From Pseudomonadota bacterium (GTDB lineage: Bacteria > Bdellovibrionota > Bdellovibrionia > Bdellovibrionales > Bdellovibrionaceae): a stretch of DNA of 64,000 bases. Position 1 is the stretch's first letter. The number at the start of each line of letters is the position of its first letter. The stretch lies in assembly GCA_041178425.1 (NCBI GenBank), contig JBEGVH010000040.1, positions 1 to 64,000 on the forward strand. The letters run 5' to 3'. Shown here piece by piece: positions 22,523-58,813 of this stretch. Under the pieces are notes generated by a model that saw only the letters and a list, made by a program, of their open reading frames with translations, had not been told where the DNA came from and searched no databases. The translations under genes and the position numbers were made by a program.

Positions 22523-22577
22523 CATTAAGTCGCTTTGGTACGAATAATTTGGTTACTAAATAAAAATGGAGGATAAA

Positions 22578-23015
22578 ATGAAAATAGGTTTAATCGTTGC
22601 TCTCTCGTTGGTTTCTGGAATGGCTTTCGCTGGTCCCAAAGAGACAAGTTCTGCGAAAAAAATGGAAAGAACAACCGAAGAGGGTAAAAAAGAAAAGCAA
22701 GGTCTCGAAACGAAAGCTGTCGCCGTTGAAGGGCAAAAGGCTCAAGCCGGAAAAACAATGACAAGTGACAGCTCGGCCTCTCAGGGTATTGATTATCTCA
22801 AAAAAGTAGCGGCTAAGGCCGATGGCAATAAAGTCTATGAAGCGGCTGGAGGAATTGCAGAGGCCGCTGCGACGGGCGACGCCCGTTCAGTAGAAGTGGC
22901 TAGTCGTCTCGCTGAGCTCATTAAATCTGAGAAAGATGTTTTGAAGGCTTTCGATCGAGTGGTTGAAGAGTTCAAGTTGAATAAAGAAGAGGTTTTAGAA
23001 AACTGTAAAAGTTAA
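22578..23015 (+). CDS. Small secreted helical hypothetical protein
   Basis: GGAGG RBS, signal peptide ending AFA, followed by a terminator. Confidence 0.75.
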   Translation: MKIGLIVALSLVSGMAFAGPKETSSAKKMERTTEEGKKEKQGLETKAVAVEGQKAQAGKTMTSDSSASQGIDYLKKVAAKADGNKVYEAAGGIAEAAATGDARSVEVASRLAELIKSEKDVLKAFDRVVEEFKLNKEEVLENCKS

Positions 23016-23052
23016 GTTTTTTCCGACTATCGGAAAGCTTGCTTCGAATGGG

Positions 23053-23085
23053 AAGGGCCACCTCTGTGGCCCTTTTTATTTTTTT
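23053..23085 (+). terminator. Intrinsic terminator
   Basis: AAGGGCCAC-CTCT-GTGGCCCTT followed by a T-tract. Confidence 0.85.
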
Positions 23086-23086
23086 G

Positions 23087-23183
23087 GGGTCTGTCCCCTC
23101 CCAATTCTCAATTTTCCTTCTGCCATCGCTACTCCCATTGGGGTCTGTCCCCCGAATTTCTCCCCCGAATTTCCCCGAATTTT
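23087..23183 (+). repeat. Two copies of GGGTCTGTCCCC (23087, 23141) followed by a tandem CCCCGAATTT x3
   Basis: Direct reading of the sequence. Confidence 0.9.
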
Positions 23184-23193
23184 GTGAAGGCTT

Positions 23194-23643
23194 TTACTTT
23201 GAGATCGTGTAAAGAGTGGCGCCACTTGCTACCAAAAGCACTCCAGCCACTTTTGCCAGAGAGAATGGAATTCCATTGACCCAGTGATCCCACATTGAAC
23301 TGAATAAAATCTGAGCACTTATTATTAGGATAAAGACTTGTGCGGCCCCAAGGTGCCTGATGCTCCAGGGGGTGAGAGTCACAATCACAAATCCGCAGAG
23401 TCCTGGCACTAAGTGCCAAAAATGAAATTCATATTGGCTGAGCTTGGGTGGAATAAAGTCCGGCATAGCCATTGGAAACTTCTGGGCCAAAATAAAAAGA
23501 GCAAAGGCAATTACGGCAAAAACCAAGGCATTTAACAAGCTGGCCGTCGATAGGCCGTAGGCCAGAGAGAATTGTTTATTTAGAATTCCCTGCATCACGA
23601 TACAAAGACCGACAGAAATTGGAATCAAATACCAGGTGATCAT
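23194..23643 (-). CDS. DMT family (YdcZ-like) small membrane transporter
   Basis: ~150 aa, hydrophobic; QGILN, PGLCG, QILFSSMWDH, GVLLVASG pattern; ATG at 23643. Confidence 0.8.
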   Translation of the reverse strand: MITWYLIPISVGLCIVMQGILNKQFSLAYGLSTASLLNALVFAVIAFALFILAQKFPMAMPDFIPPKLSQYEFHFWHLVPGLCGFVIVTLTPWSIRHLGAAQVFILIISAQILFSSMWDHWVNGIPFSLAKVAGVLLVASGATLYTISK

Positions 23644-23674
23644 CGAGCCATCCTTTTTTGGGATATCCTGGCAG

Positions 23675-23686
23675 GGGTCTGTCCCC
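23675..23686 (+). repeat. GGGTCTGTCCCC motif copy
   Basis: Exact match upstream of the DMT gene. Confidence 0.9.
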
Positions 23687-23816
23687 AAAGACAACACGTT
23701 CTTTGCCTGCGGATTGCGTTATGTGTTGAGTAAAAGAGAAGGAATTTGTTTGAGACGCCTTTGAAACCTTGCTACAAATTCCGCAATTATATCTGGGAAT
23801 TCAAGGAGATGGTGGA

Positions 23817-24818
23817 ATGGCACTCAATTATAAAGAGGCTGGGGTCGACGTCGTTGCTGGAGAATCGCTCGTTCATTGGCTCGTTGGTTCTAAGCAGGGT
23901 AAAAAGCATTTTCAAAATAACATCGTTTCCGGAATTGGCGGATTTGCTTCTCTGTTCAGGGTTGACTTCAAATCCATGGAAAAGCCTTGCTTGGTCACTT
24001 GCACCGATGGGGTTGGCACAAAAGTAAAACTCGGTAGTCAATTTGGCCGCTATTCGAGCCTCGGACAAGATCTCGTTGCTATGTGTGTGAACGATCTTAT
24101 TTGTTGTGGCGGCATGCCCCTCCTTTTTTTAGATTACTACGCAACCGGAAAACTGGAACTCGAGGCGGCAAAAGATTTTCTAGGGGGTGTTCAAAAAGCC
24201 TGCGACGATTCTCTTTGTGCGCTCGTTGGTGGGGAAACAGCAGAAATGCCTGGGGTCTACGCCAATAAAGATTTTGACTGTGCTGGTTTTGCCGTTGGTG
24301 TCGTGGATGAGGTGAAAGCCCTCGGGCCTCATCGAGTTCAAGAAGGCGATGTGGTTATTGGAATTAGTAGTAATGGATTTCACAGCAATGGATATTCACT
24401 CCTTCGAAAAGTTTTTGCACAAGATATCGAGCAATGGATCGACTATCTTTTACGTCCTACCCATCTCTATGTAGCCCTAATGAAAGAGCTACTTGATAAA
24501 AAAGTCGAGCTCCACGCCGCAGCTCATATCACTGGCGAGGGAATTGAAAACGTACCTCGAGTGATCCCAGATCATCTTGCATGGGAAGGTCAATCTTGGA
24601 TATGGCCTGAGCCCTTTGTTGAAGTTCAAAATCGCACTGGGATGTCTGATGCCGAGATGATGCGAACGTTGAACTGTGGAATAGGGTTTACGTTTATGCT
24701 CCCTGCCTCTCAAGCGCCAATGGTCCACGAGGTTGCACGAAACCTTGGATATAGCACGCATGACATTGGACGGATCGTTGCTCGAGGAGTCGATGGAAAA
24801 GATATCATTGGGTTATAA
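23817..24818 (+). CDS. purM: Phosphoribosylformylglycinamidine cyclo-ligase (AIR synthetase)
   Basis: YKEAGVD, TDGVGTK, DLVAMCVND, GGETAEMPG, SNGFHSNGYSL. Confidence 0.97.
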   Translation: MALNYKEAGVDVVAGESLVHWLVGSKQGKKHFQNNIVSGIGGFASLFRVDFKSMEKPCLVTCTDGVGTKVKLGSQFGRYSSLGQDLVAMCVNDLICCGGMPLLFLDYYATGKLELEAAKDFLGGVQKACDDSLCALVGGETAEMPGVYANKDFDCAGFAVGVVDEVKALGPHRVQEGDVVIGISSNGFHSNGYSLLRKVFAQDIEQWIDYLLRPTHLYVALMKELLDKKVELHAAAHITGEGIENVPRVIPDHLAWEGQSWIWPEPFVEVQNRTGMSDAEMMRTLNCGIGFTFMLPASQAPMVHEVARNLGYSTHDIGRIVARGVDGKDIIGL

Positions 24819-24882
24819 TCTGCACGATAAAATCTGGGCCAAAAGTAATAAATGAGCTGATGGCAAAAGAGAGGAGGAACTA

Positions 24883-25476
24883 GTGAAGAGTCATATGGAA
24901 AGTTTTAAAAAACCTCAACAGTCTTCTGATTCCCCTCTCTCCTGGGCGGTGTTTATATCTGGTTTCGGAAGTAACTTGCAGGCACTGATTGATGCTGATC
25001 CAAAAATTAGAATTGAATTGGTCGTATCGAGTCGAGCTGATGCTCCGGGACTCGAAAGGGCTAAAGTGGCGGGAATACCAACTTTGATTCTTGCCAAATC
25101 CATCGATTGGATTGAGTTGTCTACCACTCTTACTAAATTAAATATTGATCGTATTTTTTTGGCCGGTTTTATGAAAGTCGTGCCCTCTCTTTTTATCTCT
25201 AATTGGACGAATAGAATCCTGAATCTTCATCCGAGTCTTTTGCCAGCGTATAAAGGACTCGGTGCCATCGAGAGAAGCTACAAAGATAATGCATCAATGG
25301 GAGTCACTGTGCATTGGGTGACTCAAGATCTCGATGCTGGTCCGATTTTGTTACAAAAAGAAGTGCTTGCTGCTGGGCGAGCCCAAGATTTTCCTTTCGA
25401 GACAGTTAAAGAGTTAATCCATAAAACGGAAAACCAGATTGTCGTAGATGCCGTGCGGAGGTGCCAGGAATGTTAA
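24883..25476 (+). CDS. purN: Phosphoribosylglycinamide formyltransferase
   Basis: ISGFGSNLQAL, LAGFMK, NLHPSLLP, GVTVHWV..LDAGPI. Confidence 0.95.
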   Translation: MKSHMESFKKPQQSSDSPLSWAVFISGFGSNLQALIDADPKIRIELVVSSRADAPGLERAKVAGIPTLILAKSIDWIELSTTLTKLNIDRIFLAGFMKVVPSLFISNWTNRILNLHPSLLPAYKGLGAIERSYKDNASMGVTVHWVTQDLDAGPILLQKEVLAAGRAQDFPFETVKELIHKTENQIVVDAVRRCQEC

Positions 25477-26762
25477 CGTCTCCGCGGGTCATTATTGCAT
25501 CAGTCTATGGCCGAGGCCACTGGTTGGCAGTTGAGCTTGTGCGTGCTGGTTTTAACGTACAATTACTTGAGCTGACTTCGAGAATTAGTAAGGCGTTGCC
25601 AGAAGATCACGACGGGCCCTTTGGGTATTTTTCCTCTCCTCGCTGGGAAAGTCTTGAGCGAGATTCGCTTGGGTCTCTTGGTGAGCTCAAAGAAAAACCC
25701 CATGGTTACACTGTTTGGCTTAAGAGTGGTCCATGGGAGTTTGCTGGGCCGACTTCTTCTTATAGGGCAGAGGCACTGAAACAAACTCAAGAGGCCAAAG
25801 ATTTTGTTCGAAACGGTAGTGATCCCAACGTTGATCGTGGCGGCTGGAGCAATGAACTAAAAAAAGCTGACTTTGATTTTCGTTGGTTTGCGAGTTTGGC
25901 CTCGGATTTTCAATCCAACCAGGGGCGAAGGGCCAATGATGCGTTTCAGAATGCGATCCCTAGTGGTCTCTTCGAAAAGTATTTAACTCGAAATCCTGAA
26001 ACCTTCGATTTAAAGTCCAGCCTCAAATGGTGCTTTGATCAGGGAGTTGTCGTTGTCGAAGACGCAGATATTCCGGATGTAGCCGTTGAAAATCGGCGTG
26101 TTCAGGGGGTTGAAGTCAAGGGAAGAAAATCAGGCTTTGTAAGATGCGAACAACTCATATGGACTCTCACATCCGCAGAAACGGAACAATTGTCATTGAG
26201 AGTCTTCTTAAAGCTATTTAAGGGCAGAATCATTGAGCCTGAGTGGTGTTGGATGCGTTATAAAATTCAGTTCGATGAATCGGTTGAATTTCACCAGCTA
26301 CCGTCGAGTTTTTTAATGATTGATGATCTTCATGTGCCATGGACAAACGAAAATTTTGTCACCTTTAGAAAAGGGCAATTTGCGAGACACTATCATGTAT
26401 GGATGCGTTTGCCATACTCGCAAAGATTTCATTCGGAGTACTTGGCCGAACGAATTGAACCAGTCTTGTTGAGCCTCCGGAATCGTTGTCCACGATTGAA
26501 GGCGAAGCTGCTCACTTTGCCACTCGAAGCACAAAGTCATTCCAAAGAGATAGGACCATGTATTTTTCCAATTTATCGTTATGAGGATCTCATAAATCCG
26601 CCGGGACTATCCTTTTTTAATTTATGGTATAGTCACCCTGAGAATTGGCCTTCTTATGGAATTGAGCCGATCTTGTATTCACAAAAGAAAATTATAGCTG
26701 AAATGCAAAAGTGGTGGGGCGACCTTACTGAAGAACAAAAGAAGAAGGAGTTAGAGCTGTGA
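25461..26762 (+). CDS. Hypothetical protein within the pur operon, degenerate FAD-dependent oxidoreductase-like
   Basis: N-terminal beta-alpha-beta resembling a Rossmann start but lacking GxGxxG; VENRRVQGVEV segment; overlaps purN and purB. Confidence 0.6.
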   Translation: MPGMLTSPRVIIASVYGRGHWLAVELVRAGFNVQLLELTSRISKALPEDHDGPFGYFSSPRWESLERDSLGSLGELKEKPHGYTVWLKSGPWEFAGPTSSYRAEALKQTQEAKDFVRNGSDPNVDRGGWSNELKKADFDFRWFASLASDFQSNQGRRANDAFQNAIPSGLFEKYLTRNPETFDLKSSLKWCFDQGVVVVEDADIPDVAVENRRVQGVEVKGRKSGFVRCEQLIWTLTSAETEQLSLRVFLKLFKGRIIEPEWCWMRYKIQFDESVEFHQLPSSFLMIDDLHVPWTNENFVTFRKGQFARHYHVWMRLPYSQRFHSEYLAERIEPVLLSLRNRCPRLKAKLLTLPLEAQSHSKEIGPCIFPIYRYEDLINPPGLSFFNLWYSHPENWPSYGIEPILYSQKKIIAEMQKWWGDLTEEQKKKELEL

Positions 26763-28051
26763 TTGAACGATACACACGACCTGAAATGGGCAAACTTTGG
26801 GAAGTCGAAAACCGATTTGCAAAAATGCTCGAGGTGGAAATTGCGGTGGCAGAGTCTCAGTCAGAGCTAGGCTTCATTCCCGCTGAGGCTGCCAAAGCCA
26901 TTCGTAAAAAAGGTAAATTCAATGTGGCTCGAATTGCAGAAATCGAACTCGAAACAAAGCACGACGTTATCGCCTTTGTGAGCAATGTCGCTGAGAATGT
27001 CGGAAGCTTTGGTCGCTTTGTTCACTTTGGAATGACGAGCAGTGATGTTTTGGATACCGCGCTTAGTTTGCAGGTTCGCGAAGCTGGATTGGTTCTCGGT
27101 AAAACTCTGGATGATCTCGAAAAAGCGCTGATCAAGTTGGCTAAGACGGAAGCGAGCACGCTGTGTGCTGGGCGAACCCACGGCATGTTTGCCGAGCCAA
27201 CCACTTTTGGTGCGAAAATGGCTGGGTTTTTAGCCGAATTAAAAAGACATCGTCGTCGCCTCGATGAAGCCTTAAAAGAAATGATGATCTGTAAACTCAG
27301 CGGAGCCGTTGGTACATATTCCAGTCAGCCTCCCGAGGTTGAAGCTCGAGTAGCAAAGAAATTAAACCTGAAGCCAGAAACCGTAGCGACTCAAGTTATA
27401 CCTCGCGACCGCCATGCGGCCCTTTTTATGGCCCTAGCTCTTCTGGGCTCAGGCTTTGAGCGTTTAGCCGTTGAACTCCGTCACCTTCAAAGAAGTGAAG
27501 TGGGAGAGGTGATCGAGGGTTTTCAAAAAGGGCAAAAGGGGTCTTCGGCGATGCCTCACAAGAAGAATCCAATCACTGCCGAAAACGTGACTGGTTTGTC
27601 TCGATTATTGCGGTCTTACGCTTTTGCTTCTGTAGAGAATGTAGCCCTCTGGCATGAACGTGACATCAGTCATTCATCGGTTGAGAGGGTTGTGTTTCCA
27701 GACGCTTTTATTGTGGCTGATTATGCTGCCTTTCGCATGACGCAACTTTTGAATGGGTTATCTGTGCAGAGAGAGCGCATGCTTGAAAATATTGATCGAG
27801 CTCAAGGAACTTTGTTTAGTTCGCACATTCTTCTTGCTCTTGTTGATAAGGGCTTGAGTCGCGAAGAGGCCTATAAAGTTGTGCAGAAGCATAGCCATGC
27901 GCTTCGTAAGGGGGAGCATTTACGGGAGAGTTTATTGAGTGATCCAGAAACTAAGAAACTTCTCAAAGCGAAGGAGCTTGATGAAATCTTCTCTGGAAAG
28001 CGTCATACCAAACGTATTAACGAGATAATTCAGAAAGCTTTGAAGAACTAG
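26759..28051 (+). CDS. purB: Adenylosuccinate lyase
   Basis: MIERY, HDVIAF, TSSDVLDT, GSSAMPHKKNP, LWHERDISHSS. Confidence 0.98.
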   Translation: MIERYTRPEMGKLWEVENRFAKMLEVEIAVAESQSELGFIPAEAAKAIRKKGKFNVARIAEIELETKHDVIAFVSNVAENVGSFGRFVHFGMTSSDVLDTALSLQVREAGLVLGKTLDDLEKALIKLAKTEASTLCAGRTHGMFAEPTTFGAKMAGFLAELKRHRRRLDEALKEMMICKLSGAVGTYSSQPPEVEARVAKKLNLKPETVATQVIPRDRHAALFMALALLGSGFERLAVELRHLQRSEVGEVIEGFQKGQKGSSAMPHKKNPITAENVTGLSRLLRSYAFASVENVALWHERDISHSSVERVVFPDAFIVADYAAFRMTQLLNGLSVQRERMLENIDRAQGTLFSSHILLALVDKGLSREEAYKVVQKHSHALRKGEHLRESLLSDPETKKLLKAKELDEIFSGKRHTKRINEIIQKALKN

Positions 28052-28144
28052 TGTTAGACAAAAAAGGAAGGGTCGGTGCTCTTCCTTCGGGATAGGAATT
28101 AAAAGTATTTGAATGGTAATTTCACTAAATAGAAAAGGAATCTT

Positions 28145-28864
28145 ATGACAGGGCAACTACTCTATGAAGGAAAAGCAAAGAAGATTTTTGATATTCCCGG
28201 AGAACCGCAAAATGTTCTCATGGAATTTAAGGATAGTCTTACTGCGTTCAATGCACAAAAAAAGGGTTCCTTTGAATCTAAGGGAGTCGTGAATCGGGAT
28301 ATCGCTGCTTGGATTTTTAAATTTCTCGAAACCAAAGGAGTAAAATCTCATTTTATTGAGAACATCGGTGAACGATCGATGAAAACCCGTCGAGTCGAAA
28401 TTGTTCCTCTCGAAGTTGTGATTCGAAATACTTTGGCGGGCTCAACCGCAAAAAAAATGGGAAAAGAAGAGGGTGAGCTTTTAAAGAAGCCTCTTGTAGA
28501 ATTTTATTTTAAAAAGGATGAATTGAACGATCCTTTTGTAAGCGATGATCAAATTCTCGCGTTTTCAATCGCAGATGAGAAGACGATTGCGGAATTAAAG
28601 CGACAGGCTCTCCTGATTAATTCGGCCTTGTTGGGGCTTTTTGAATCGATTGGAATCAAACTTGTCGACTTCAAAGTGGAATTCGGAAAGACCAGTAGCG
28701 GCGAAATAATGTTGGCGGATGAGATCACACCTGATTGCTGTCGCCTGTGGGATCTTAAAACGGGTGAGAAAATGGATAAAGATCGTTTTCGTCGCGATCT
28801 TGGAAATATTGATCAATATTATCATGAAGTTTTACAGCGTTTAAATAAAAGAGGAGGTGTTTAA
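28145..28864 (+). CDS. purC: SAICAR synthetase
   Basis: LYEGKAK, PLEVVIRN, VDFKVEFG, LADEITPDCCRLWD, DKDRFR. Confidence 0.98.
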   Translation: MTGQLLYEGKAKKIFDIPGEPQNVLMEFKDSLTAFNAQKKGSFESKGVVNRDIAAWIFKFLETKGVKSHFIENIGERSMKTRRVEIVPLEVVIRNTLAGSTAKKMGKEEGELLKKPLVEFYFKKDELNDPFVSDDQILAFSIADEKTIAELKRQALLINSALLGLFESIGIKLVDFKVEFGKTSSGEIMLADEITPDCCRLWDLKTGEKMDKDRFRRDLGNIDQYYHEVLQRLNKRGGV

Positions 28865-29124
28865 TGAGCGGTATTATTCGTGTTGGAGTAAAAGTGATGC
28901 CCCGAGAAGTAATCCTAGATACTCAGGGGAGAGCAGTTGAACATCTCTTGAAACAAAAGCAAATGCATGTCAGCCACTGTCGTGTGGGCCGTTTTGTGGA
29001 GTTAGAGTTTGCTACCGAGAGTGAGAAGGCAGCGTTAGAGCAAGCTAAGGTTATTGCTGAAACTGTTCTTCATAACCCATTAATTGAAACATTTGAACTT
29101 ATTCCGATGACGAACGGGAGGTAG
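28864..29124 (+). CDS. purS: FGAM synthase subunit PurS
   Basis: ILDTQGRAV, RVGR, LHNPLIE; lies between purC and purQ. Confidence 0.93.
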   Translation: MSGIIRVGVKVMPREVILDTQGRAVEHLLKQKQMHVSHCRVGRFVELEFATESEKAALEQAKVIAETVLHNPLIETFELIPMTNGR

Positions 29125-29127
29125 TTT

Positions 29128-29793
29128 GTGAGTCGTTCTGTTGGAGTGATTCGATTTCCGGGCACCAACTGTGATCGGGATGTTTTTGAAGCCGTGCAAA
29201 TGGCAGGTTTGAAAGCAGAGTGGTTGTGGCACCTTGATCGTTTTGAAGCGAAAAAGTATCGTGCTCTTGTGTTGCCTGGTGGATTCAGTTTTGGCGACTA
29301 TCTTCGTGCTGGTGCCTTAGCGGCACGGTCTCCGGTGATGGACTCGGTGAGAGAGGCAGCAAAGTCTGGAACTCCAGTGCTTGGTATTTGTAATGGTTTT
29401 CAGATTCTTTGCGAAAGTCATTTATTGCCTGGGGCCTTGGTTAAAAATGAGAGCCTTCGATTCCAAGATGAGTGGGTTGACCTTACGGTGGTCAATGCTC
29501 ACAAGGCCTTTGGTTCAAATTTAAAGAGCGGAGCCAGTTTGAAGTTGCCGATTGCTCACGGTGAAGGTCGTTTTTATGCCTCAGAGGCTGAATTGAAGCG
29601 GCTGTGGGATTCTGGACAAGTTTGGTTGACTTATAAACACAATCCAAATGGGTCTTTGCAGAATATTGCCGGCGTTATGAGTGATGATAAGAATGTGGTG
29701 GCGTTAATGCCTCACCCAGAACGTGCAATGAAAGCATGGATGGGATCAGAAGACGGGCAAATCATCTTTAAAACTTTGGAGAGTATCCTATGA
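29128..29793 (+). CDS. purQ: FGAM synthase glutaminase subunit PurQ
   Basis: FPGTNCDRD, PGGFSFGDYLR, GICNGFQ, AHGEG, MPHPER. Confidence 0.97.
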   Translation: MSRSVGVIRFPGTNCDRDVFEAVQMAGLKAEWLWHLDRFEAKKYRALVLPGGFSFGDYLRAGALAARSPVMDSVREAAKSGTPVLGICNGFQILCESHLLPGALVKNESLRFQDEWVDLTVVNAHKAFGSNLKSGASLKLPIAHGEGRFYASEAELKRLWDSGQVWLTYKHNPNGSLQNIAGVMSDDKNVVALMPHPERAMKAWMGSEDGQIIFKTLESIL

Positions 29794-31922
29794 GTTTGAC
29801 GATTGAACAAAAATTGAAGCACTACAGAATGTCGAAGGCCGAATATGATCGTGCCTGTGAATTGGTGGGTCACCCTCTTCGGGAAATTGAATGGCCATTG
29901 TTTTCCGCGCTCTGGAGTGAACACTGTAGTTATAAAAGTTCCAAGATCCATTTGAGAAAGTTCTATAATAAAAATGCTCGGGTGCTTGAGGCCGAGGGTG
30001 AAAACGCCGGTGTCGTTGATCTTGGCGAAGGGGAACGAGTGGCGTTCAAAATGGAAAGCCATAATCACCCAAGTTTTATTGAACCTTATCAAGGGGCAGC
30101 AACGGGAGTTGGTGGGATTCTTCGAGATATTTTCACGATGGGAGCTCGTCCGATTGCCTTGGCTGATTATCTTTGCTTTGGCGAACCAAAGGCGCCACGA
30201 ATGGAATATCTCGTTAATGGAGTGGTTCGTGGTATTGGTGGTTATGGTAACTGCGTTGGTGTTCCAACCGTCACTGGTCAAACGAACTTCCATTCGAGCT
30301 ACAACAATAATATTTTAGTGAATGCCATGGCTGTTGGGCTTTTTCGCCCAAATGACAAAGTGGCCTTATCAAAAGCAAAAGGGCCGGGGAATCTTGTCGT
30401 CTACGTTGGAGCCAAAACAGGCAAAGACGGTGTGCATGGGGCCAGCATGGCGTCAGAATCTTTTGATTCGGATTCTGAAAAGAAAAAGCCAAACGTTCAA
30501 ATCGGGGATCCGTACTTTGAAAAACTTCTCATCGAATCTTGTTTAGAAGTAATTCAAAAAGATCTAGTTGTGGCGATTCAGGATATGGGGGCTGCAGGGC
30601 TAACATCATCGAGCTTCGAAATGGCCTCTAAGGGTCAGGTCGGAATGGAAATGCATTTAGATAAAGTGCCTCTCCGTGATTCTTCGATTACTCCAGAAGA
30701 GATTTTATTGTCAGAGAGCCAAGAGCGAATGTTGATGGTTGTTGAGCCGGCTAAATTTGCCGCCATTCAAGATGTCTTTGCCCATTGGGGGCTTGATGCT
30801 GCAGTTGTCGGACACATTCTACCAGAGCGTATAGTTCGTTTGTTGTGGCAAGGTGAAGTTCTCATTGAGATTGATCCCGATATTCTTGTTGAACATCCGC
30901 CGAAATATGAACGTGCGTTTAATCCATGGAGCTGGAAGAATCGTAAAGCGGATCAACCTGTTGCCGATCAAAAAAACGAAACGCGTTGGGGAACACCAGA
31001 TCAAGCGTCACGCCGATTTATCACACGTCAGTACGATCAACGCGTGGGTCTGAAAACGGTTCAAGACTGTGAGTTTCCAGTGGCACTCATAAAATTGCCT
31101 GATTCCGGTCGTGGACTTGGAATTGCGGTGGGCTGTAGACCTGAGATTATGCGCATTGATGCAAAGCTTGGGGGGTACGACAGTATTGCTTATCCAGCTT
31201 TGCAGATGGCATGTCAGGGTATTCAGGCCTTGGCGATCACCGACTGTTTAAATTTCGGAAATCCGGAAAAGCCAGAAATCATGAGTGAGTTTGTTGCGAG
31301 CGTGGAGGCCATTAGTGAAATGGCGAAGGCGCTGGATGCTCCAGTGGTGAGCGGTAACGTTAGCTTCTACAATGAGACTCTCGGACAGAATATTACGTCA
31401 ACTCCAGCGACAGGTCTGGTTGGCCTTCGTTCGAATATCGAACACCTGAAAGCCTCGACCTTTCAAGCTGAGGGCGAACAAGTTTACCTCGTATCCCTCA
31501 ATCTTATCCACCTTCACCACGCATGGGGGACAGACCCGTCCCAACCAGCGCAATGGTCGGGGACATGGGATACAGCCAAAGTTGTTAAATTTATTGAACA
31601 AACACGTAAGCTTGCGGCTTTATCAAAAGTTTCGTCTCTGCGAGCAGTGAGTTCCCCAGGTGTTGCGACTTCACTTTTGAAAATGTCACTGGCAGGAATC
31701 GGTGTTGGACAAGAATCGATCCACGCGTCCGAAAAACAACCAAACGGGCTCTACCAAATTATCGTGTCGGGCACAGATTTGAGTGAGACGCTCCCAACAA
31801 TTTTTGTTGGCAGCTCCGTCAGCATCACTGAAATCGGTCAGACCCGCAAAGATAAGGCTTGTGAATCGCAAAAACTAACTTACGAAAAAGCATGGGGTAA
31901 GCATTTTGAAAACTTGGCGTGA
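29790..31922 (+). CDS. purL: FGAM synthase subunit PurL (small type)
   Basis: WSEHCSYKSS, KMESHNHPS, GAATGVGGI, QDMGAAG, LSESQERM, DCLNFGNP, SGNVSFYN. Confidence 0.96.
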   Translation: MSLTIEQKLKHYRMSKAEYDRACELVGHPLREIEWPLFSALWSEHCSYKSSKIHLRKFYNKNARVLEAEGENAGVVDLGEGERVAFKMESHNHPSFIEPYQGAATGVGGILRDIFTMGARPIALADYLCFGEPKAPRMEYLVNGVVRGIGGYGNCVGVPTVTGQTNFHSSYNNNILVNAMAVGLFRPNDKVALSKAKGPGNLVVYVGAKTGKDGVHGASMASESFDSDSEKKKPNVQIGDPYFEKLLIESCLEVIQKDLVVAIQDMGAAGLTSSSFEMASKGQVGMEMHLDKVPLRDSSITPEEILLSESQERMLMVVEPAKFAAIQDVFAHWGLDAAVVGHILPERIVRLLWQGEVLIEIDPDILVEHPPKYERAFNPWSWKNRKADQPVADQKNETRWGTPDQASRRFITRQYDQRVGLKTVQDCEFPVALIKLPDSGRGLGIAVGCRPEIMRIDAKLGGYDSIAYPALQMACQGIQALAITDCLNFGNPEKPEIMSEFVASVEAISEMAKALDAPVVSGNVSFYNETLGQNITSTPATGLVGLRSNIEHLKASTFQAEGEQVYLVSLNLIHLHHAWGTDPSQPAQWSGTWDTAKVVKFIEQTRKLAALSKVSSLRAVSSPGVATSLLKMSLAGIGVGQESIHASEKQPNGLYQIIVSGTDLSETLPTIFVGSSVSITEIGQTRKDKACESQKLTYEKAWGKHFENLA

Positions 31923-33300: not shown

Positions 33301-33313
33301 AAATTGGAAAATT

Positions 33314-34600
33314 GGGGACAGACGCTTTAATGGCCCAGGCCTGAGGTTTAGAAAGCTCAGGCTTAGAATGTAAAAGCCGCAAATTCCCAGACCGAATTCC
33401 GATATTCGAGCCCATCGGACGCAGGATCGAAGCTATTCTGTTTAGAGTGTATCATGGAAATTGCAGAAAAATGGATATATGAGAATACCAAGATCCATTC
33501 AGTTATGGCCCACACAAGGAACAGTTCATCTTTTTTGGAGATGTCACAATCGTGAGTATCATCTTCGTTCAAAAGACATGAAGAATCTTTATTTTGAATC
33601 TATGGAGAGAGCTTTGAATTATCGCAAGAATGGAGAGAACTGTCTGGTGCACTCCTTTTGTGCCATGAATAATCATTTCCATCAGACGGTGAGCTACTTG
33701 AAGGGGTGGGAACGTTTATCTGCTACCTTTCAGTATGGTCATGGAATATTTGGTGCTAGATTCAATCGTAAAACCAGCAGGTGTGGTGCCGTATTTAGTG
33801 GACGACCCAAAACACCCCTGATTCAAAATCAAGCCCATGAACGACGAGTTCATTTTTATGTTGAATCGAACCCTATTCGGGCTGGAATCTGTAATTATGA
33901 AAATCTAATTAATTATTCCTATTCAAGTTTCGGATTTTATGCTCATGGAAAGAAAACACGTTACACATCGTTGCTCTCTATTCCCCAATGGTACTTGCAG
34001 CTGGCGAGAACTTGGAGAGCTCGACAACGTCGTTATAGAAAATTATTTGAGCTTTATCTTGGTCTTCAAGACAAAAAAGAATCGAGTTCGTTTTTTGATC
34101 TTTATATTGGTGATGATAGTTGGACCGAATATGAAAAAAAACGAGTTAAAAAGAGTATGGGGAATTCGGAGATTGTTATTAATATGATAAAGCTCGAGAG
34201 TTCTTAGTTGGCTGAGACTCAAAACTACTGATTGTTCGATTTGGTAGTTAGGTGACTCTTACTCCTGGAGAGGTTAATTGGAATTAATCCGCACTGGTTC
34301 GGCTTGTTGTAATTTAATCAGACCTAAAATTAAAAAAAAACAACTGCATTGTCTGATAAAGTGTTGTAAAAACAATACTTTGTTCGTTCGCCTTATAGAC
34401 TCATGCCAATGGATGTGCATTTTTATTTAATTGTGCACGGTTAAATTTTCTTAGGACCAGATTCAATTTAGCTGCGCTGTGTTAGATTGAGATCTAAAGA
34501 TTCAAAGCTTCGTCGATTATTATTCTTGTTGGGCTGTTTTTTTTGGGGCTATCGAAGGTTAATGTTACCTGTTCCGAAACCTCCTCCCGGGTCTGTCCCC
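33314..34600 (+). mobile_element. Putative RAYT locus bounded by inverted copies of the 12-mer motif
   Basis: GGGGACAGACGC at 33314 (11/12) and GGGTCTGTCCCC at 34589-34600 enclose the RAYT gene; subterminal hairpin 33337-33364; AT-rich relative to the flanks. Confidence 0.6.
33479..34207 (+). CDS. REP-associated tyrosine transposase (RAYT; HUH/Y1 transposase family)
   Basis: HLFWRCHNRE N-terminus, HSFCAMNNHFH (HUH), FNRK..RCGAVFSGR, YVESNPIRAG (catalytic Tyr), YSYSS. Confidence 0.9.
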   Translation: MRIPRSIQLWPTQGTVHLFWRCHNREYHLRSKDMKNLYFESMERALNYRKNGENCLVHSFCAMNNHFHQTVSYLKGWERLSATFQYGHGIFGARFNRKTSRCGAVFSGRPKTPLIQNQAHERRVHFYVESNPIRAGICNYENLINYSYSSFGFYAHGKKTRYTSLLSIPQWYLQLARTWRARQRRYRKLFELYLGLQDKKESSSFFDLYIGDDSWTEYEKKRVKKSMGNSEIVINMIKLESS

Positions 34601-34674
34601 AGGGATCGGCAAACAACGAAGTGCTGAAAGTATTATGATGAATTTATTTTTCTGATTTGGGAGTAAAAAAGTTT

Positions 34675-36165
34675 ATGCGATCTTCTCTTCCTGTTTTTTA
34701 TCAGATTTATATCCAAATTGTACTTGTCGTTAGTGCCTTGTTTTTTATTCATTTTCTTAAAGGCTTACAAGTATGCAAAAATGATAGAACAAAGCTTTCG
34801 TTGAACTATTTATTTCTTTGCTTGTGGGCTTTTTGTTACTCATTTTTATTTTGGTTTCGACTAAGCTTTTCCGGATTAATTGACTTGATTCACATGCGGC
34901 ACCTTTTATGGATTTTGAGCCTTATTACTAATACCTTTTACGTTGAAACACTGGCTGCCTATCTTGAAATTCAAAATTCAGTGGTCTCTACCATAAGGAA
35001 AGGATTGATTTTCTTTACGGGTTTATTTGTTTTTTTCGAGCTTCATTTTTTGGGGACAGGCCACTCTCTAATTTTTGTGGAGTCAGCAAGGTCGCAGGCA
35101 AATCTTTTTAACGTTTTGGTTGGGGTAAATACTTCTAGCCCAACTCCGCTCATGAAAGATCTAAGCTTTATTTTAAGTATTTTTGTTATTTTTCTGACTC
35201 TTTATTACCTTAAGTTGGCTTATGCCAGAAAACGCAAAGAGGTTCTTTTAACTTTAGGAATTGGAATTACATTTGCTGCGTCAATGAATGAGGTTTTGAA
35301 TTCAATGGAAGTTGTTGAAAGTATTGCTTTTTTATTCGCATCAAAAGCAGTGGAAGTTTTTAGGATCGGGGAGTTTTTAAGTCGTCAGCGAATAGCTGCC
35401 GTTCAGGCAATGAAAATAGAGATTCGATCGTTATCGAAAATGGCCGCTTATTCGTTTATAGCTGGAGGTTTGATGCATGATATTAGGACGCCCATATCTG
35501 TAATTTCAGCCCATTTGGAGAAATTAAGAAGACGCTTCAAGGAAATAAAATCCTCTCAAGATTCTGATTTAAATTCAAATTTGACAGCGGTGGTTGATAA
35601 CTTAGATTTATCCGTGGGCAAGATGAGTGATCAGATGGATCGTATTCAATCGATGTTATTCAGTTATCTAGATTTGGTCCGGACTACAAATAACCATACC
35701 AGGGTCTGTCCCCTCGGGGAGATAGTAGAACAGGCCTTGGAGTTATCGCAGCCTCGAGTTATTTCATCTGGTGTGTCACCGATAATTGTTGAGTTGATTC
35801 CCAATGTTTTGGTGAAAGGTGTCCCCGTTCAAATCGAGATGATTTTAGCCAATCTCTTTAATAATGCTATTGATACCATTAAAGAAAAACCATTGGGAAA
35901 TGTACGGTTAAGCTTCAAGCTTTATTCAACAAAGATTGCCCTGACCGTATCAAACACGGGCCCGATTGATGATGCAACTTTGCAAAAAATACTCAAAAAA
36001 CAGCCCGTTTCGACAAAGGGTGCAGATGGGAATGGAATAGGCCTGCGGATAGTCTCTGAGCTTTGCCGCGCTAACAATGGGGAACTAGCAATTTTTAATG
36101 ACGATGGGAGGGCAAATATTGAGGTAGCCTTTCCCATAGAGGGCAGAGTCGCCACCACGATATAG
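34675..36165 (+). CDS. Orphan membrane-bound sensor histidine kinase
   Basis: ~7 TM N-terminus; H-box GLMHDIRTPIS; N-box NLFNNAID; STKG..GNGIGL. Confidence 0.88.
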   Translation: MRSSLPVFYQIYIQIVLVVSALFFIHFLKGLQVCKNDRTKLSLNYLFLCLWAFCYSFLFWFRLSFSGLIDLIHMRHLLWILSLITNTFYVETLAAYLEIQNSVVSTIRKGLIFFTGLFVFFELHFLGTGHSLIFVESARSQANLFNVLVGVNTSSPTPLMKDLSFILSIFVIFLTLYYLKLAYARKRKEVLLTLGIGITFAASMNEVLNSMEVVESIAFLFASKAVEVFRIGEFLSRQRIAAVQAMKIEIRSLSKMAAYSFIAGGLMHDIRTPISVISAHLEKLRRRFKEIKSSQDSDLNSNLTAVVDNLDLSVGKMSDQMDRIQSMLFSYLDLVRTTNNHTRVCPLGEIVEQALELSQPRVISSGVSPIIVELIPNVLVKGVPVQIEMILANLFNNAIDTIKEKPLGNVRLSFKLYSTKIALTVSNTGPIDDATLQKILKKQPVSTKGADGNGIGLRIVSELCRANNGELAIFNDDGRANIEVAFPIEGRVATTI

Positions 36166-36179
36166 TTTAGGCGACCTCA

Positions 36180-37790
36180 TTAACGAATAACGGTTTTGAA
36201 AAAGTCGTTACCCTTATCATCGAGAATGATAAACGCAGGAAAATCTTTTACTTCAATTTTCCAGACGGCTTCCATTCCTAATTCTTTAAAATCAAGGACC
36301 TCAACCTTTGTTATACACTCTTTGCCAAGGCGTGCAGCAGGTCCACCAATAGAGCCAAGATAGAAACCCCCATGTTTTCGGCAGGCCTCGGTGACTTGGG
36401 GACTTCTGTTTCCTTTACCCAACATAATCATGGAAGCACCTAAGCTTTGGAAGGTTCCGACATACGGATCCATTCTCTCGCTTGTTGTTGGGCCAAATGA
36501 ACCTGAAGCATAGCCTTTCGGTGTTTTCGCTGGACCAGCATAGTACACCGCATACTTTTTGAAGTAATCAGGGAGGGTCTGTCCCCGGTCGACCATTTCT
36601 TTGAGCTTGGCGTGGGCGATGTCTCTGGCAACAATCATTGGGCCATTGAGCATGACTCTTGTCGCAACCGGCTGCTGCCCTAGGAGTTTAAGAGTTTCTT
36701 CAATTGGTTGGTTCAGATCAATCTGCAAAACCGGCTCATTCGAATTATTGAGATTCGCAGGAAGAAAACGGGCCGGGTGCTCCTCGAGTTGTTCTAAAAA
36801 AAGCCCCTCTTTAGTGATCTTTGCCTTTATATTGCGATCAGCGGAGCAGCTAACGCCTATTCCCACAGGACAGCTTGCGCCGTGACGGGGGAGCCGTATA
36901 ACCCGCACATCATGAACAAAATATTTACCTCCAAATTGAGCTCCGATTCCTAATTCGCGAGCCCAAATCTCAACTTGTTTTTCCATTTCGATGTCGCGAA
37001 ACGCTCGCCCACCTTCATTTCCAGTTGTTGGCAGGCCATCGAGATATCCGGCTGAAGCGTATTTAACAACTTTGAGATTTTCCTCTGCAGAAGTTCCTCC
37101 GACAACCAGGGCGAGATGATAGGGAGGGCAGGCGGCCGTTCCAAGTGACTTCATTGCCTCTTTGGCAAACTGCTCAAATCCTTGAGGGTTTAATACAGCC
37201 TTCGTTTTTTGATATAAATAGGATTTATTTGCACTCCCACCACCCTTCGCAACGAAAAGAAAATGGTATTCATCTCCAGGTTCTGCATAAAGGTCTATTT
37301 GAGCCGGAAGATTAGTTCCAGTATTCTTCTCTTCATAAAAGGTGAGCGGTGCCATCTGAGAAAAACGAAGATTCTGTTTTTGATAGGTATTGTAAACCCC
37401 TTCTGATAAATATTCTTTATCATCAGCACCGGTAAATACGAGCTCCCCTTTTTTGCCCATGATAATCGCCGTACCTGTGTCTTGACAGGAGGGGAACTCT
37501 CCTTCAGCGGCAATCACTGCGTTACGTAAGAGGTCAAGAGCAACGAAGCGATCGTTATCGGACGCCTCTGGATCTTTAAGAATATTGGCTAGTTTTTCTA
37601 AGTGGCTCGCGCGTAAAAGATGAGAGACATCTCGCATGGCTTCTTCGGACAAAACAGCGAGTGCCTTTGGTTCAATGACGAGAACTTCTTTTCCATTAAA
37701 TATTTCTGTTCTTACGTAGTCTTTAGAAATTTGTCGATACGAACAAGAGTCTTTAGCTTTCTCGTAAAGTGGAAAATACTTAAACGTCAT
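36180..37790 (-). CDS. fumA: Class I (Fe-S) fumarate hydratase
   Basis: [58 protein letters not shown]. Confidence 0.95.
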
Positions 37791-37840
37791 GGCAATTACC
37801 TCCGAAAAACAGGATAGAGGATTACAGATAGTTTTGAGGC

Positions 37841-37856
37841 TGGCAAACCATTTGCA
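37841..37856 (+). promoter_or_regulatory. Candidate sigma54 -24/-12 promoter
   Basis: TGGCAAACCATTTGCA (GG-N10-GC) upstream of a secreted ORF. Confidence 0.6.
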
Positions 37857-37906
37857 CTGTATAACACTAGGTCAAATTACTCATTAGATGCCTCAAAAAG
37901 AGGGTT

Positions 37907-38659
37907 TTGAGAATTGGTTTTGGAGGACTTTTGAACAACTGTAAAACATTTTTGCACATAGTGTTCCTTCTTAACCTAACTATTCCCTTTTTGGGTTGGG
38001 CCGAACAAATTCGACCTAACTCAGGCAAAGGTTTGTGTAACAACACTGCAGGTGATGAAACCTCAATGGTTTATGTAAAGCCAAAGATGGTGAGCGGATT
38101 GAAAAAATTCGACTTAACACTGGTTCTGTTGAAGAAAAAACCGAAGCTACAGACGGATCGAAAATTCTATCATGGCTTTGACTGTTTCTCAGGAAATGCC
38201 GGAGCTCGTAAGGCCTACTTTTGCAAGGGCGAAGTCGAAGGGGGAGCACAGATCCTTCTCTCGGTGAGTCAGGCCGACGAGGGTTTTCAAGTCGTCTGGA
38301 AAACTCGAGAATCGGATTCCGAGGATTTTAGTTCCCTGGATTGGGGCTCGGGTTTTCAGTGTAATCTCGACGGAATCATCAAGGATTCGGTGGTTGCTCC
38401 CCAATCTAAGGTAGAAACTATCAATCGAGCGGTTGTCTCGCCTATCCCCCCCAAATTAGCTGGCAAAGAAGACCCGCCTAAAGAGACTGAAGTCAAAGTT
38501 ACAAAGAATAAAAAAGAAAAGACGCCCCCCGAGGTGGTCTATTGGGATCCCGAAGAGGATGCAAAAAAAACCATCGTCTCTCGTCAGCTTTCATCTCCAA
38601 AGAGTTCGTATTCATCGGATTCTCTCTCTGAGTCGGAAAGTTCATACGGTGCTCAATAG
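37907..38659 (+). CDS. Hypothetical secreted protein
   Basis: Signal-peptide-like N-terminus (probable TTG start near 37931 after GGAGG), Cys residues, low-complexity C-terminus. Confidence 0.6.
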   Translation: MRIGFGGLLNNCKTFLHIVFLLNLTIPFLGWAEQIRPNSGKGLCNNTAGDETSMVYVKPKMVSGLKKFDLTLVLLKKKPKLQTDRKFYHGFDCFSGNAGARKAYFCKGEVEGGAQILLSVSQADEGFQVVWKTRESDSEDFSSLDWGSGFQCNLDGIIKDSVVAPQSKVETINRAVVSPIPPKLAGKEDPPKETEVKVTKNKKEKTPPEVVYWDPEEDAKKTIVSRQLSSPKSSYSSDSLSESESSYGAQ

Positions 38660-38662
38660 TTT

Positions 38663-39331
38663 TTACCATGGTAGTTCTTCGCCATTCGCATGCCAGAAGG
38701 TTCCAGAATTTTCCAAGTTCAGTTGGTCTATGCGCTGGAGGATATTTGTCGCTGCCACACGCGGACTTATGTCGCCATTAAAGCCAACCATTCGAGTTTG
38801 AACAAATCCTGGGTGCAGAAGTCCAATGGCAATGTGCTTCTTTTTTAAATCGATCGCCAAACTTTTTCCGAAGGCATTCAATGCCGCCTTAGAAGCTCGA
38901 TAACCATAGTAGCCTCCGCTCGAATTGTCAGCGATAGAGCCCATTCTGCTGGTTATCATCGCGATTTTAGAATGGCTGGTCATTTTTGGAATGAGACTGA
39001 GGGTGAGTAACAAAGGTGCTAGAGCGTTAGTATCAAATTGTTGTCGGATGGAGTCAGGATTCATGCTCTCGATGGTGTCGTTTGCGAGGATGCCCGCATT
39101 GTTTATCAGAAGACTAATTGAGTTCATGTTGAGTAAGTCATGGAGATGATTCCAGCTTTTTGAGTTGTTGACATCCATTCCATCTACAACAGCGATTTTA
39201 AGCTCTTCAAGTTCAGCGCTTCTTTCGCGGCACGTGCCGATGACATTCAACCCTCTTTCTTTTAGTAGTTTGCATAGCTCAAGTCCGATACCTCTATTTG
39301 CTCCTGTGACGACGGCGTATTCCATTCTCAT
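38663..39331 (-). CDS. SDR oxidoreductase (CsgA/C-factor-like)
   Basis: VTGANRGIG, INNAGI, SRMGSI, YGYRASKAALN, HPGFVQT. Confidence 0.92.
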   Translation of the reverse strand: MRMEYAVVTGANRGIGLELCKLLKERGLNVIGTCRERSAELEELKIAVVDGMDVNNSKSWNHLHDLLNMNSISLLINNAGILANDTIESMNPDSIRQQFDTNALAPLLLTLSLIPKMTSHSKIAMITSRMGSIADNSSGGYYGYRASKAALNAFGKSLAIDLKKKHIAIGLLHPGFVQTRMVGFNGDISPRVAATNILQRIDQLNLENSGTFWHANGEELPW

Positions 39332-39430
39332 CCTCTATTAATGTTCTAGGTTCAGAAAGACACCCGATTCGATCTCGTGAAAACATGCATAGAAGCACTC
39401 CTCACTCTCTTCGATTGAAAAAGGTTTTTG

Positions 39431-40636
39431 TTATCCTTGTTTAAAAAGTTTTTGGCCCGGATAGATTCCTTGGTCTCCAGCCACTCTCGTGGCCACCAGG
39501 GTTACAAGGATAACAAAGGGTGTAATATTCCATCCAAAATACTCTATGGCCAGAACAGCACAGGTCCAAGGGGTCTTTGCCGCTGAAGCGAAAAGTGAAA
39601 CAAAACCGATTGCTGCAAATAGAAATATTGGCTGATCGAGGAATTGAGCGATGACGCTTCCCGTGGTCGCGCCAATAAAAACGAGAGGGATAAATTCTCC
39701 TCCCTTAAAACCTGTGGCGAGTGCAATTATTGTTAGAAAAAACTTAATAATGGGTGTGTCCCAAGTTGGCGCAGCAATAAAAGTTGTGCGAATGGTTTCG
39801 AGGCCAAGCCCCTGGTAACGTTCGAGGGGAAATACCAAATAAAGAGCCAAAAGAATTGAACCACCTAGGAAAGCTCTCCAAGACGGACTGATGGTTTTCA
39901 AGAGATGTTCGGCAAAATGCATAATGCGGACGTGAGCTCTAGAAATCAATCCGATGACAAAAGAGAAAACAATCAAACTCATCAATAAAGATAAATTTAT
40001 TTCGGGAAATGAGACGAGCTGAGGTTCAAAATGGGGCGACTTCATTGCAACGGACGTTGCCCATGCAACAAAGCTTGCAATAAAGCATTCTAGCACTACC
40101 GTTTTTTCAATATGACCAACGACGATAACCTCCAAAGCGAAAATGGCTCCAGCAACAGGTGCGCCGAGAGCCGCTCCAAATCCGGCACTCAAAGCAGCCA
40201 TTAAAACCCATCGTCGTTCTTTGATCTTTATATGAAAGTATTTGGCTATTCGGTCGGCTGTAGCAGCCGACATTTGTAGGGCCGTTCCCTCGCGCCCGAC
40301 GGAGGCTCCGACCAGGTGGGAGAGAAGTGTTGTGAGGTAGATGAGTGGGGCCATGGCGAACGGAGCTATTTGCTGGGGTTTGTGAATTTCCTCAAGAACT
40401 AATTTTATCCCTTTCTCTGCGCCAAAGCCGAAGGATCGGTACAGCCAGGGAGTGGCGAGTCCGACCAAGGGTAGCCCCAAGATGAAATAGGGATGCTCCT
40501 GACGCTCTATGGTGATCCATTGAAGGGTAATGAGAAAAAGAGCCACTAAAATGCCTGAGACGAGGCCAATGATTCCACTGACCGTGTACGCCTTCATTTT
40601 TGCGGGAGATGCTAGGTGCTTGAATTGATTTTTCAT
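39431..40636 (-). CDS. CLC family anion transporter (EriC, CLC-F-like)
   Basis: GASVGREGT, GFKGGEFIP, multiple TM segments, ~400 aa without CBS domains. Confidence 0.9.
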   Translation of the reverse strand: MKNQFKHLASPAKMKAYTVSGIIGLVSGILVALFLITLQWITIERQEHPYFILGLPLVGLATPWLYRSFGFGAEKGIKLVLEEIHKPQQIAPFAMAPLIYLTTLLSHLVGASVGREGTALQMSAATADRIAKYFHIKIKERRWVLMAALSAGFGAALGAPVAGAIFALEVIVVGHIEKTVVLECFIASFVAWATSVAMKSPHFEPQLVSFPEINLSLLMSLIVFSFVIGLISRAHVRIMHFAEHLLKTISPSWRAFLGGSILLALYLVFPLERYQGLGLETIRTTFIAAPTWDTPIIKFFLTIIALATGFKGGEFIPLVFIGATTGSVIAQFLDQPIFLFAAIGFVSLFASAAKTPWTCAVLAIEYFGWNITPFVILVTLVATRVAGDQGIYPGQKLFKQG

Positions 40637-40732
40637 GGGTTGTTAACTAACGCAAAAGAGGGCGTGGAGGCAATCAATGATTCCGATGGGTTAGACTCTA
40701 AGTGTGTGATTTTGAGAGTTGTGGCAAAGGTG

Positions 40733-40795
40733 GGGTCTGTCCCCAAAAAAGCGGCCGGGGAAGGGAAAGGGGCCGGGGAAGGGGGGTCTGTCCCC
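40733..40795 (+). repeat. Doublet of GGGTCTGTCCCC (40733, 40784) enclosing tandem GGCCGGGGAAGGG x2
   Basis: Direct reading of the sequence; intergenic between the divergent CLC and mutS genes. Confidence 0.9.
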
Positions 40796-40857
40796 AAGAG
40801 GTGTGACGGGACAAGTCGAAGGGTGAAAAAGAGGGGGGAATTGTTTATTCAAGTGCG

Positions 40858-58654: not shown

Positions 58655-58813
58655 GGCGTCTCGATGGGGGACGGAGCCTTGGCGTGAAGAACTGAGGGCT
58701 CCGGCGAACGTGATGTGTTGGCCGGGCCCCAGCGGGGCCGGCCACGCCGGCGAGGCCATGGAATGGCCGCCCCGAAGTATTCACGCCAAGGCTCCGTCCC
58801 CCTTTGAGACGCC
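58655..58813. repeat. GC-rich 159-bp palindromic element (34-bp arms, 2 mismatches) with internal branches
   Basis: GGCGTCTCGATGGGGGACGGAGCCTTGGCGTGAA / TTCACGCCAAGGCTCCGTCCCCCTTTGAGACGCC; internal GGCCAT-GGA-ATGGCC and GGCCCC..GGGGCC. Confidence 0.85.

Follow-up and report, generated by a model that had tools for sequence, protein, structure and literature searches.

Elements called TIRtrons consist of Y1 genes (TIRYTs) lying between inverted repeats, and one described type ends in the consensus GGGGWSAS (PMC3733652). According to the sections of the subclass survey that deal with them, most TIRYTs fall in TnpA-Y1 subclass 2.1, the largest RAYT-like group (14.9% of strains), for which no REP-like sequences were found and whose target and activity were left open (PMC6006769). 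Here we analysed a 64,000-nt stretch of a Bdellovibrionaceae genome (GCA_041178425.1; this whole stretch, C40:1-64000, is hereafter called the window), which belongs to a metagenome-derived assembly of 43 contigs; judging by their labels, named homologues also point to Bdellovibrionota. The window contains a Y1 HUH transposase gene of the TIRYT or RAYT-like kind (33479..34207, + strand, 242 amino acids), flanked by short terminal inverted repeats and surrounded by a local cloud of copies of the 12-bp word that forms its own ends.

Perfect 11-nt inverted arms flank the gene (33313-33323 and 34591-34601), accompanied by a weak 12-nt inner pair, and the element measures ~1,289 bp. The left terminal inverted repeat, TGGGGACAGAC (33313..33325, +), agrees with the motif at 11 of 12 positions and lies directly after the purF stop codon, ~165 nt 5' of the ATG, while the right one (34589..34601, -) carries the exact motif. 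Because the end sequence GGGGACAG at both ends matches GGGGWSAS, the element type is one already known. The original prediction had proposed that the enzyme recognises a short non-hairpin motif. The motif does belong to the enzyme, but it is a terminal inverted repeat of a type treated in the relevant sections of earlier accounts (PMC3733652, PMC6006769), and since TIRtron ends were already in print, there is no novelty as such in an enzyme recognising a short word that forms no hairpin.

The 12-mer occurs 17 times exactly in the 3.06 Mb genome, with nine copies in the cloud (23087-40795) and eight on other contigs (C6, C9, C20, C21, C29, C31 and two on C41); the same nine copies lie within 10.4 kb of the transposase gene. 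The nine exact copies and the near-copies at 33314 (11/12), 35052 and 39752 (both 10/12) that had been listed beforehand were all recovered at the same coordinates and strands, and no exact copy was present elsewhere in the window. Strand signs given here with motif copies follow our feature list and are opposite to those of the motif search, in which these near-copies read 33314 (-), 35052 (-) and 39752 (+). When up to two mismatches were allowed, the window gave 19 matches, against a mean of 2.55 and a maximum of 9 in shuffled sequences. With the terminal copy excluded, 8 of 16 genome copies fell within 21.6 kb (binomial p = 7e-14), and after close pairs were merged this became 6 of 13 loci (p = 2e-10; ~3e-8 when corrected for window number). 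A genome-wide signal of the HIP1 or uptake type was rejected on these counts, as 17 copies, nine of them in 18 kb, are neither even nor abundant.

The motif had been described as non-palindromic, which applies to the minority of copies: 12 of the 17 in the genome (5 of the 9 local ones) extend to the 13-mer GGGG-TCTGT-CCCC, an interrupted palindrome. What stood of that description is the folding behaviour, since shuffled sequences folded as well as 9 of the 10 sites (z -1.2 to +1.3; the purL site gave z -2.2), and the copies are therefore not REP-type hairpins. No GT[AG]G-type foot was found in the flanks of the copies.

To place the cloud in its phylogenetic setting, we compared the syntenic regions of relatives. 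Between purF and mutS, synteny is kept in congeners G001 and G004, whose purF-fumarase interval has neither the transposase nor the adjacent histidine kinase gene (34675..36165, +). In the orthologous stretches of G001-G004 there were no copies within one mismatch of the 10-mer, compared with 11 in the window, the single exception being one G004 copy inside a duplication of the clade's commoner word (B type, see below). The degenerate pattern GGGWCWGWCCCC gave 0-4 matches in each of 60 relatives and 30 here. Absence of the motif from stretches without the gene had been named in the original prediction as a comparison to make, and together with the non-uniform genome-wide count it means that the HIP1- or uptake-like outcome was not what we observed. 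Homologues of the transposase (67% identical), the kinase (55%) and the fumarase (93%) each came from a contig of 4,609 nt, an agreement in length suggesting that the transposase-kinase-fumarase arrangement is retained by a sister species and that the transposase is an old resident.

Among 41 clade loci, both inverted ends were detected by pattern in 28 and one end in eight (three of these at contig ends), and the remaining five, all in G342, carried a third word, GTGACGGAG, which stood at both ends in four of them. Nearly all clade loci end in GGGACGGAG, whereas the window gene ends in GGGGACAGAC; the commoner word, GGGGACGG, is one base off GGGGWSAS. In a tree of 55 rows, from which loci with a broken frame or fewer than 200 residues were excluded, the branch joining the window gene and its sister P0002 was long, had full support and arose from within the GGGACGGAG-ended genes, so GGGGACAGAC is the derived word. 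Taking GGGGACAGACCC as the window gene's word (A) and GGGGACGGAG as the clade word (B), we found that none of the 34 exact GGGGACGGAG copies in the genome came closer than 20 kb to the window gene. Exact A copies were likewise absent up to 10 kb from the four B-type paralogues. The window gene has switched its word, and its cloud holds the new word exclusively. At residues 102-107 and around them, the window protein and P0002 read (C/T)GAVF(S/N)GRPK and the clade SGKVAEGRPK, and this change is a candidate basis for the switch in specificity. A search for related loci returned one distant match in genome contigs and six in metagenome contigs, and the five metagenome loci with enough flank were all of the GGGACGGAG type; neither set yielded another DNA locus carrying the word of the window gene. 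Viral sequences scanned for two close copies gave none.

Clouds were also present next to related genes. The clustering test covered five of the nine genomes that had pattern lists and a close homologue; G264, G251, G342 and G004 stood outside it, having incomplete lists, a different word or fragmented sequence. Counted to 10 kb from the gene, B words other than the terminal ones numbered 13 of 41 in G002 (0.44 expected), 11 of 37 in G173 (0.29), 6 of 22 in G048 (0.85) and 2 of 11 in G001 (0.04), and in G211 they numbered 2 of 25 (0.37 expected, p = 0.05, not significant). Pooled copy density, 3.75 per 10 kb nearest the gene, had dropped to 0.74 by a distance of 7.5 kb, and the reversed control stayed at 0.35-0.84. 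These comparisons indicate that clouds recur beside related genes in four of the five other genomes tested, as a clade trait that is not universal, and that they were gained on the branch carrying the gene, with a word specific to the neighbouring gene. Of the original prediction, the part upheld is that the motif is the enzyme's own and accumulates nearby, within genes as well as between them.

Several loci add detail to the picture of individual clouds. Four B copies, all facing a B-type paralogue, lie in the 915-residue open reading frame directly 3' of it (C9:47031-49778), two of them in copies of a protein repeat. In G173, the transposases of loci L074 and L075 are 100% identical over 777 nt, yet each lies in a cloud, a combination that points to gene conversion or to recent movement to an old site. 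At L048-L050, at C9:46036 and at the left end of the window element, a terminal repeat is decayed or out of place; some of these loci have clouds among the richest, and several near-identical multi-copy loci had no cloud; cloud size may track residence time.

Within the window, three of the nine exact copies are coding. The copy in purL (31526..31537, +) codes WGTDP and is followed by a second head, GGGGACA, at 31559; here the loop between two tryptophans has nine residues, and five in 16 of the 19 nearest homologues. In the histidine kinase gene, an exact copy (35702..35713, -) codes RVCPL and a near-copy of 10/12 lies at 35052..35063 (+); the sister-species protein retains VCPL, with a one-residue indel adjoining. 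The copy in class I fumarase (36575..36586, -) codes RGQTL and aligned gap-free with six homologues (RGQTL, RGQAL, RGEAL, RGEPL, RGEPL, NGKPL). A 10/12 near-copy in a CLC-family gene (39752..39763, -) was likewise gap-free against two congeners (WDTP vs YKVP and LTVP). The intergenic copies comprise a 13-mer form (23087..23098, -), a copy with a tandem duplication of its outer flank and motif head that is polymorphic between strains (23141..23170, -), a copy 32 nt 5' of the start of a DMT-family transporter (23675..23686, -; ATG as annotated in the protein collection), and, in the region separating the CLC gene from mutS, a pair of direct copies at a spacing of 51 nt (40733..40795, -).

Coding copies were denser in G002, in which pheT, dus, ligA and gatA (named by family match, that of dus being below the cut-off) carry 8 exact copies, and 17 with one mismatch or better, in 7.0 kb. 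Orthologue sets of four congeners had no copies in any of the four genes. Of the 17 copies, 13 aligned gap-free, one fell in a gapped stretch and three lay in a C-terminal extension of Dus (gene at L050:6145-7194) of ~30 residues that is without counterpart in the congeners, so that 13 of the 14 alignable copies were gap-free. Residues invariant in the four congeners were altered at 6 of 25 G002 motif codons and at 93 of 1,363 codons elsewhere (p = 0.007). Intermediates with two mismatches were not in excess in these genes (3 vs 1-4). The corresponding comparison in G173 was weaker, with 3 copies vs 0-2 in relatives over 1.6-7.0 kb, and its malate synthase and isocitrate lyase sites were gap-free. 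The alignments indicate that coding copies are mostly gap-free and leave protein length unchanged.

A further feature of the sites was local duplication. Of 137 full-motif sites, 15 had exact head-to-tail duplications of 9-24 nt ending at motif positions 1-7, most often at position 6; the 1,083 controls had none (0/346 head-only, 0/719 tail-only and 0/18 reversed). At 23.1 kb, a strain from run X3 had three copies where the reference has two and lacked 12 nt of the duplication; this allele was rebuilt from partial difference tables, and the strain shows 87 differences over 3.6 kb. Contigs of run X2 matched a 19 kb region with no differences and those of X3 matched 29.5-41.4 kb with five, and either run is possibly the source sample. 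Compared with the window, X3 differed by 2-4% over 22400-29462 and was near-identical over 29459-41400, forming a recombination mosaic. At 36577-36587, a deeper X2 contig aligned to the fumarase gene with a one-base shift exactly at the motif site; it is probably from another organism.

The protein itself is a divergent Y1 HUH enzyme. It has the HuH motif N-H66-F-H68 (NHFH), the catalytic Y127 in YVESNP and an SS motif (YSYSS), and H66, H68 and Y127 were invariant across 45 homologues. The gene had been called a RAYT, which is right as to an intact HUH/Y1 gene whose best fold match is E. coli TnpA-REP, but the protein falls below both family cut-offs (Pfam Y1_Tnp, 15.4 bits against 23; NCBIfam RAYT, REP_Tyr_transpos, 25.3 against 80). 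Among the 45 members, 38 matched Y1_Tnp and all 45 matched the RAYT model at E 0.01 or better. The AlphaFold model (predicted local distance difference test score 91.9) matched TnpA-REP 4ER8 best (E 1.2e-6), superposing with Z 16.4 and a root-mean-square deviation of 2.6 over 159 residues, and includes a C-terminal helical extension of ~90 residues. The genome holds four further full paralogues (50-52% identical) and three contig-end fragments, and close homologues are patchy in the phylum (10 of 401 genomes at E 1e-25). The neighbouring histidine kinase, which had just two homologues besides itself among the scored candidates, was possibly acquired together with the transposase; G+C falls to 36.8% over 34001-36000, which spans the transposase tail and the kinase gene.

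To account for the cloud, we propose cis-biased nicking in the motif head followed by strand transfer, giving duplications between genes and length-neutral patches within genes that are filtered by selection, a proposal for and against which we see the balance as even. The element would be a long-resident TIRtron whose 10-13 nt end word is the recognition and cutting site of the enzyme. HUH proteins are often cis-acting, and this one may act chiefly in cis, close to its source gene. A nick in single-stranded DNA would fall at, or just ahead of, the end of the head (GGGGAC|), and the ends would be rejoined via strand transfer, as by other HUH enzymes. E. coli TnpA-REP is described as cutting at C|T and requiring a 3' C on the attacking strand (PMC8266576), and a 3' end at GGGGAC would, by analogy, fit that chemistry. 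Between genes, the outcome would be short duplications and extra copies, and where a gene contains a partial match, a short patch would be swapped for the word, selection retaining only length-neutral, tolerable products. The copies would then have been deposited by the enzyme, and the cloud would be a trace of its activity, not a set of inserted hairpin elements. As a generalisation, which we hold more tentatively and rate somewhat short of even, TIR-type Y1 transposases may be cis-acting editors that overwrite partly matching stretches of 10-12 nt within a few kb of their own gene with their word, without change of length, recoding even pheT, ligA and gatA, with a switch in specificity changing the word.

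A number of observations weigh against enzymatic rewriting. The local build-up agrees with the predicted action in cis, but the preference is not strict, since 8 of the 17 copies are at distant places in the genome. Pooled density rises again to 1.74 per 10 kb at 7.5-10 kb, and in the flanks obtained, exact copies other than the terminal ones are present at 15 of 40 loci and missing at 25. Orientation toward the gene was 69:29 when pooled and 15:7 by locus (p = 0.13, not significant), and the three window copies at 23 kb face outward. No stretch common to the copies beyond 12-13 nt was found, so no donor tract is traceable. Duplication breakpoints are scattered over positions 1-7 instead of marking one bond. 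RGQAL in one fumarase relative is a one-step intermediate, base changes specific to G002 number 0-4 per site (mean 2.1), a weak excess over background (head p = 0.08, tail p = 0.05), and the length gain in purL could be an unrelated tandem duplication. A filled/empty pair, G264 vs G346, showed no motif, target duplication or clean junction, with flanks altered on both sides; a second such comparison was ambiguous.

Some of these points are what local molecular drive, or selection on point mutations, would produce, a possible account that we nevertheless find doubtful. The protein would bind the word and nick or mobilise in cis, alleles with better sites near the gene would be favoured, and sites would build up by substitution where the protein code permits, as uptake sequences do, around the gene only. 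Gap-free coding copies at tolerant residues, the fumarase intermediate RGQAL and the roughly two lineage-specific changes per site all agree with it, and the same pattern is described for uptake sequences in the sections concerned (PMC2817400). However, sites with two or three mismatches are not in excess, close strains differ by an entire extra copy, drive by itself leaves the duplications that end in the motif head unexplained, and strong local selection in essential genes would be needed for a gene missing from most relatives. The absence of gaps at 13 of 14 alignable G002 sites and in fumarase, CLC, malate synthase and isocitrate lyase tells against insertion scars, that is, remnants resembling REPs or miniature inverted-repeat transposable elements, or old element ends left by local hops and imprecise excision, with frame-breakers purged. 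Insertion followed by excision in pheT, ligA and gatA would moreover imply intermediates that are likely lethal. We judge this explanation improbable, even though a 150-bp inverted pair on C41 resembles a miniature element, the purL loop is four residues longer, the Dus extension seen in G002 alone holds three of its copies, the pooled orientation is inward as nested ends would show, the element is multi-copy in G264, and intragenic REP insertions are reported (PMC3733652).

A host signal resembling HIP1, Chi or uptake sequences, or a transposase that landed in a word-rich region, is in our view very improbable. The eight distant copies and the co-occurrence of A and B words at C20:83974 and C31:186354-187520 speak in its favour; the degenerate pattern gives 0-4 matches in 60 relatives vs 30 here, congener syntenic stretches hold no copies bar the one in the G004 B-type duplication, and the word tracks the gene's own ends across the clade. 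Relatives, syntenic stretches and the match between word and gene largely refute both forms of this reading. The metagenomic origin of the assembly and its 43 contigs raise the question of chance or artefact, which we reject as next to impossible: the clustering p survives correction, X2 and X3 contigs match the region and the genes are intact.

Of these readings we favour enzymatic rewriting, with drive as its main rival, and either would matter beyond this locus. The data give a target word and place a probable cutting zone in the GGGGAC head; they also give a genomic footprint and three naturally occurring word variants together with their enzymes. If true, in-place rewriting of short patches would give HUH transposases a mode of single-stranded DNA editing that has not been described for them, and would expose core genes to a local mutational force; drive on point mutations, if true instead, would be an uptake-sequence-like process limited to the surroundings of one gene. 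The element type and its end consensus are known. Local clouds, gap-free core-gene copies and the word switch constitute the new part, and were not found in the searched portions of the literature, including PMC5581495, 10.1101/2021.07.10.451892 and 10.1101/2020.03.09.984088, with few subscription journals covered.

Other occurrences of the words were noted along the way. At C41:9598-9747 an inverted pair of the window word spans 150 bp with longer common arms, the arrangement that resembles a miniature non-autonomous element. An A and a B word adjoin at C20:83974-84007, and a 388-residue open reading frame at C31:186354-187520 holds one A and two B copies; both places are far from any family gene found. 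In the window, inverted B-type words at 58667 and 58790 lie ~125 nt apart with common flanks and no B-type gene nearby. Flank similarity between copies was not above random controls. The 13 bases 3' of the purL copy (31539-31551) recur once in the genome, at C6:16230, between two outward-facing motif copies, and could be a piece of flank moved between sites, a post hoc match for which random controls gave p ~0.07. Leading/lagging-strand bias was inconsistent (A 7:12 and B 23:11 in this genome; 52:29 at other loci), and a promoter scan gave a result at chance level.

Compared with described systems, the element is closest to the TIRtron with its TIRYT. It shares a RAYT-like Y1 gene between inverted repeats unrelated to GTAG REPs, and single, paired and grouped copies dispersed elsewhere in the genome (PMC3733652). 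Unlike in that account, where terminal inverted repeats are called long, those of the window are 11 nt, and its TIRtron sections make no mention of a local cloud, gap-free genic copies or a motif switch. With subclass 2.1, or RAYT group 1, the protein shares its size (242 residues; median 238), NHFH, YxxxNP and the SS motif, the lack of REP hairpins, and paralogues ~50% identical (PMC6006769, PMC5581495). Its structural neighbours include clusters of Y1_Tnp with Bac_DnaA_C (template modelling score 0.74-0.75). Many members of subclass 2.1 are described as having a heterogeneous C-terminal domain of helix-turn-helix type (Bac_DnaA_C, HTH_23, HTH_28; PMC6006769); none of the 45 members of the window clade matched a helix-turn-helix or DnaA_C family in the C-terminal tail, and the W/FQ motif is replaced by FSGRPK in the window protein.

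More distant systems share single traits. Like REP/RAYT, represented by E. coli TnpA-REP (4ER8), the window system has the same fold, one repeat word per enzyme and a low gene copy number; unlike it, there is neither a GTAG foot nor a stable hairpin, copies number tens instead of hundreds and are local instead of genome-wide, and coding copies replace sequence and do not add to it. Identity with a hairpin REP of the classical REP/RAYT groups 2 and 3 was rejected on the missing GT[AG]G foot, the lack of folding and the score below the RAYT cut-off. IS200/IS605 TnpA has the HUH/Y1 fold in common (Z 9.3 to IS608 TnpA), as well as multiple copies, seen in the G264 clade members; the window protein differs in having YxxxNP, not YxxxQ, a longer protein, inverted ends in place of two different hairpins, and no tnpB. 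Membership of IS200/IS605 was rejected on YVESNP and 242 residues, as opposed to Y-x-x-x-Q in a short, core-only protein. DNA uptake sequences, as presented in the relevant part of PMC2817400, likewise place a 10-12 nt word in coding DNA at tolerant residues and alter the proteome; they are genome-wide and tied to competence, whereas the window word lies within a few kb of a mobile gene and changes with that gene.

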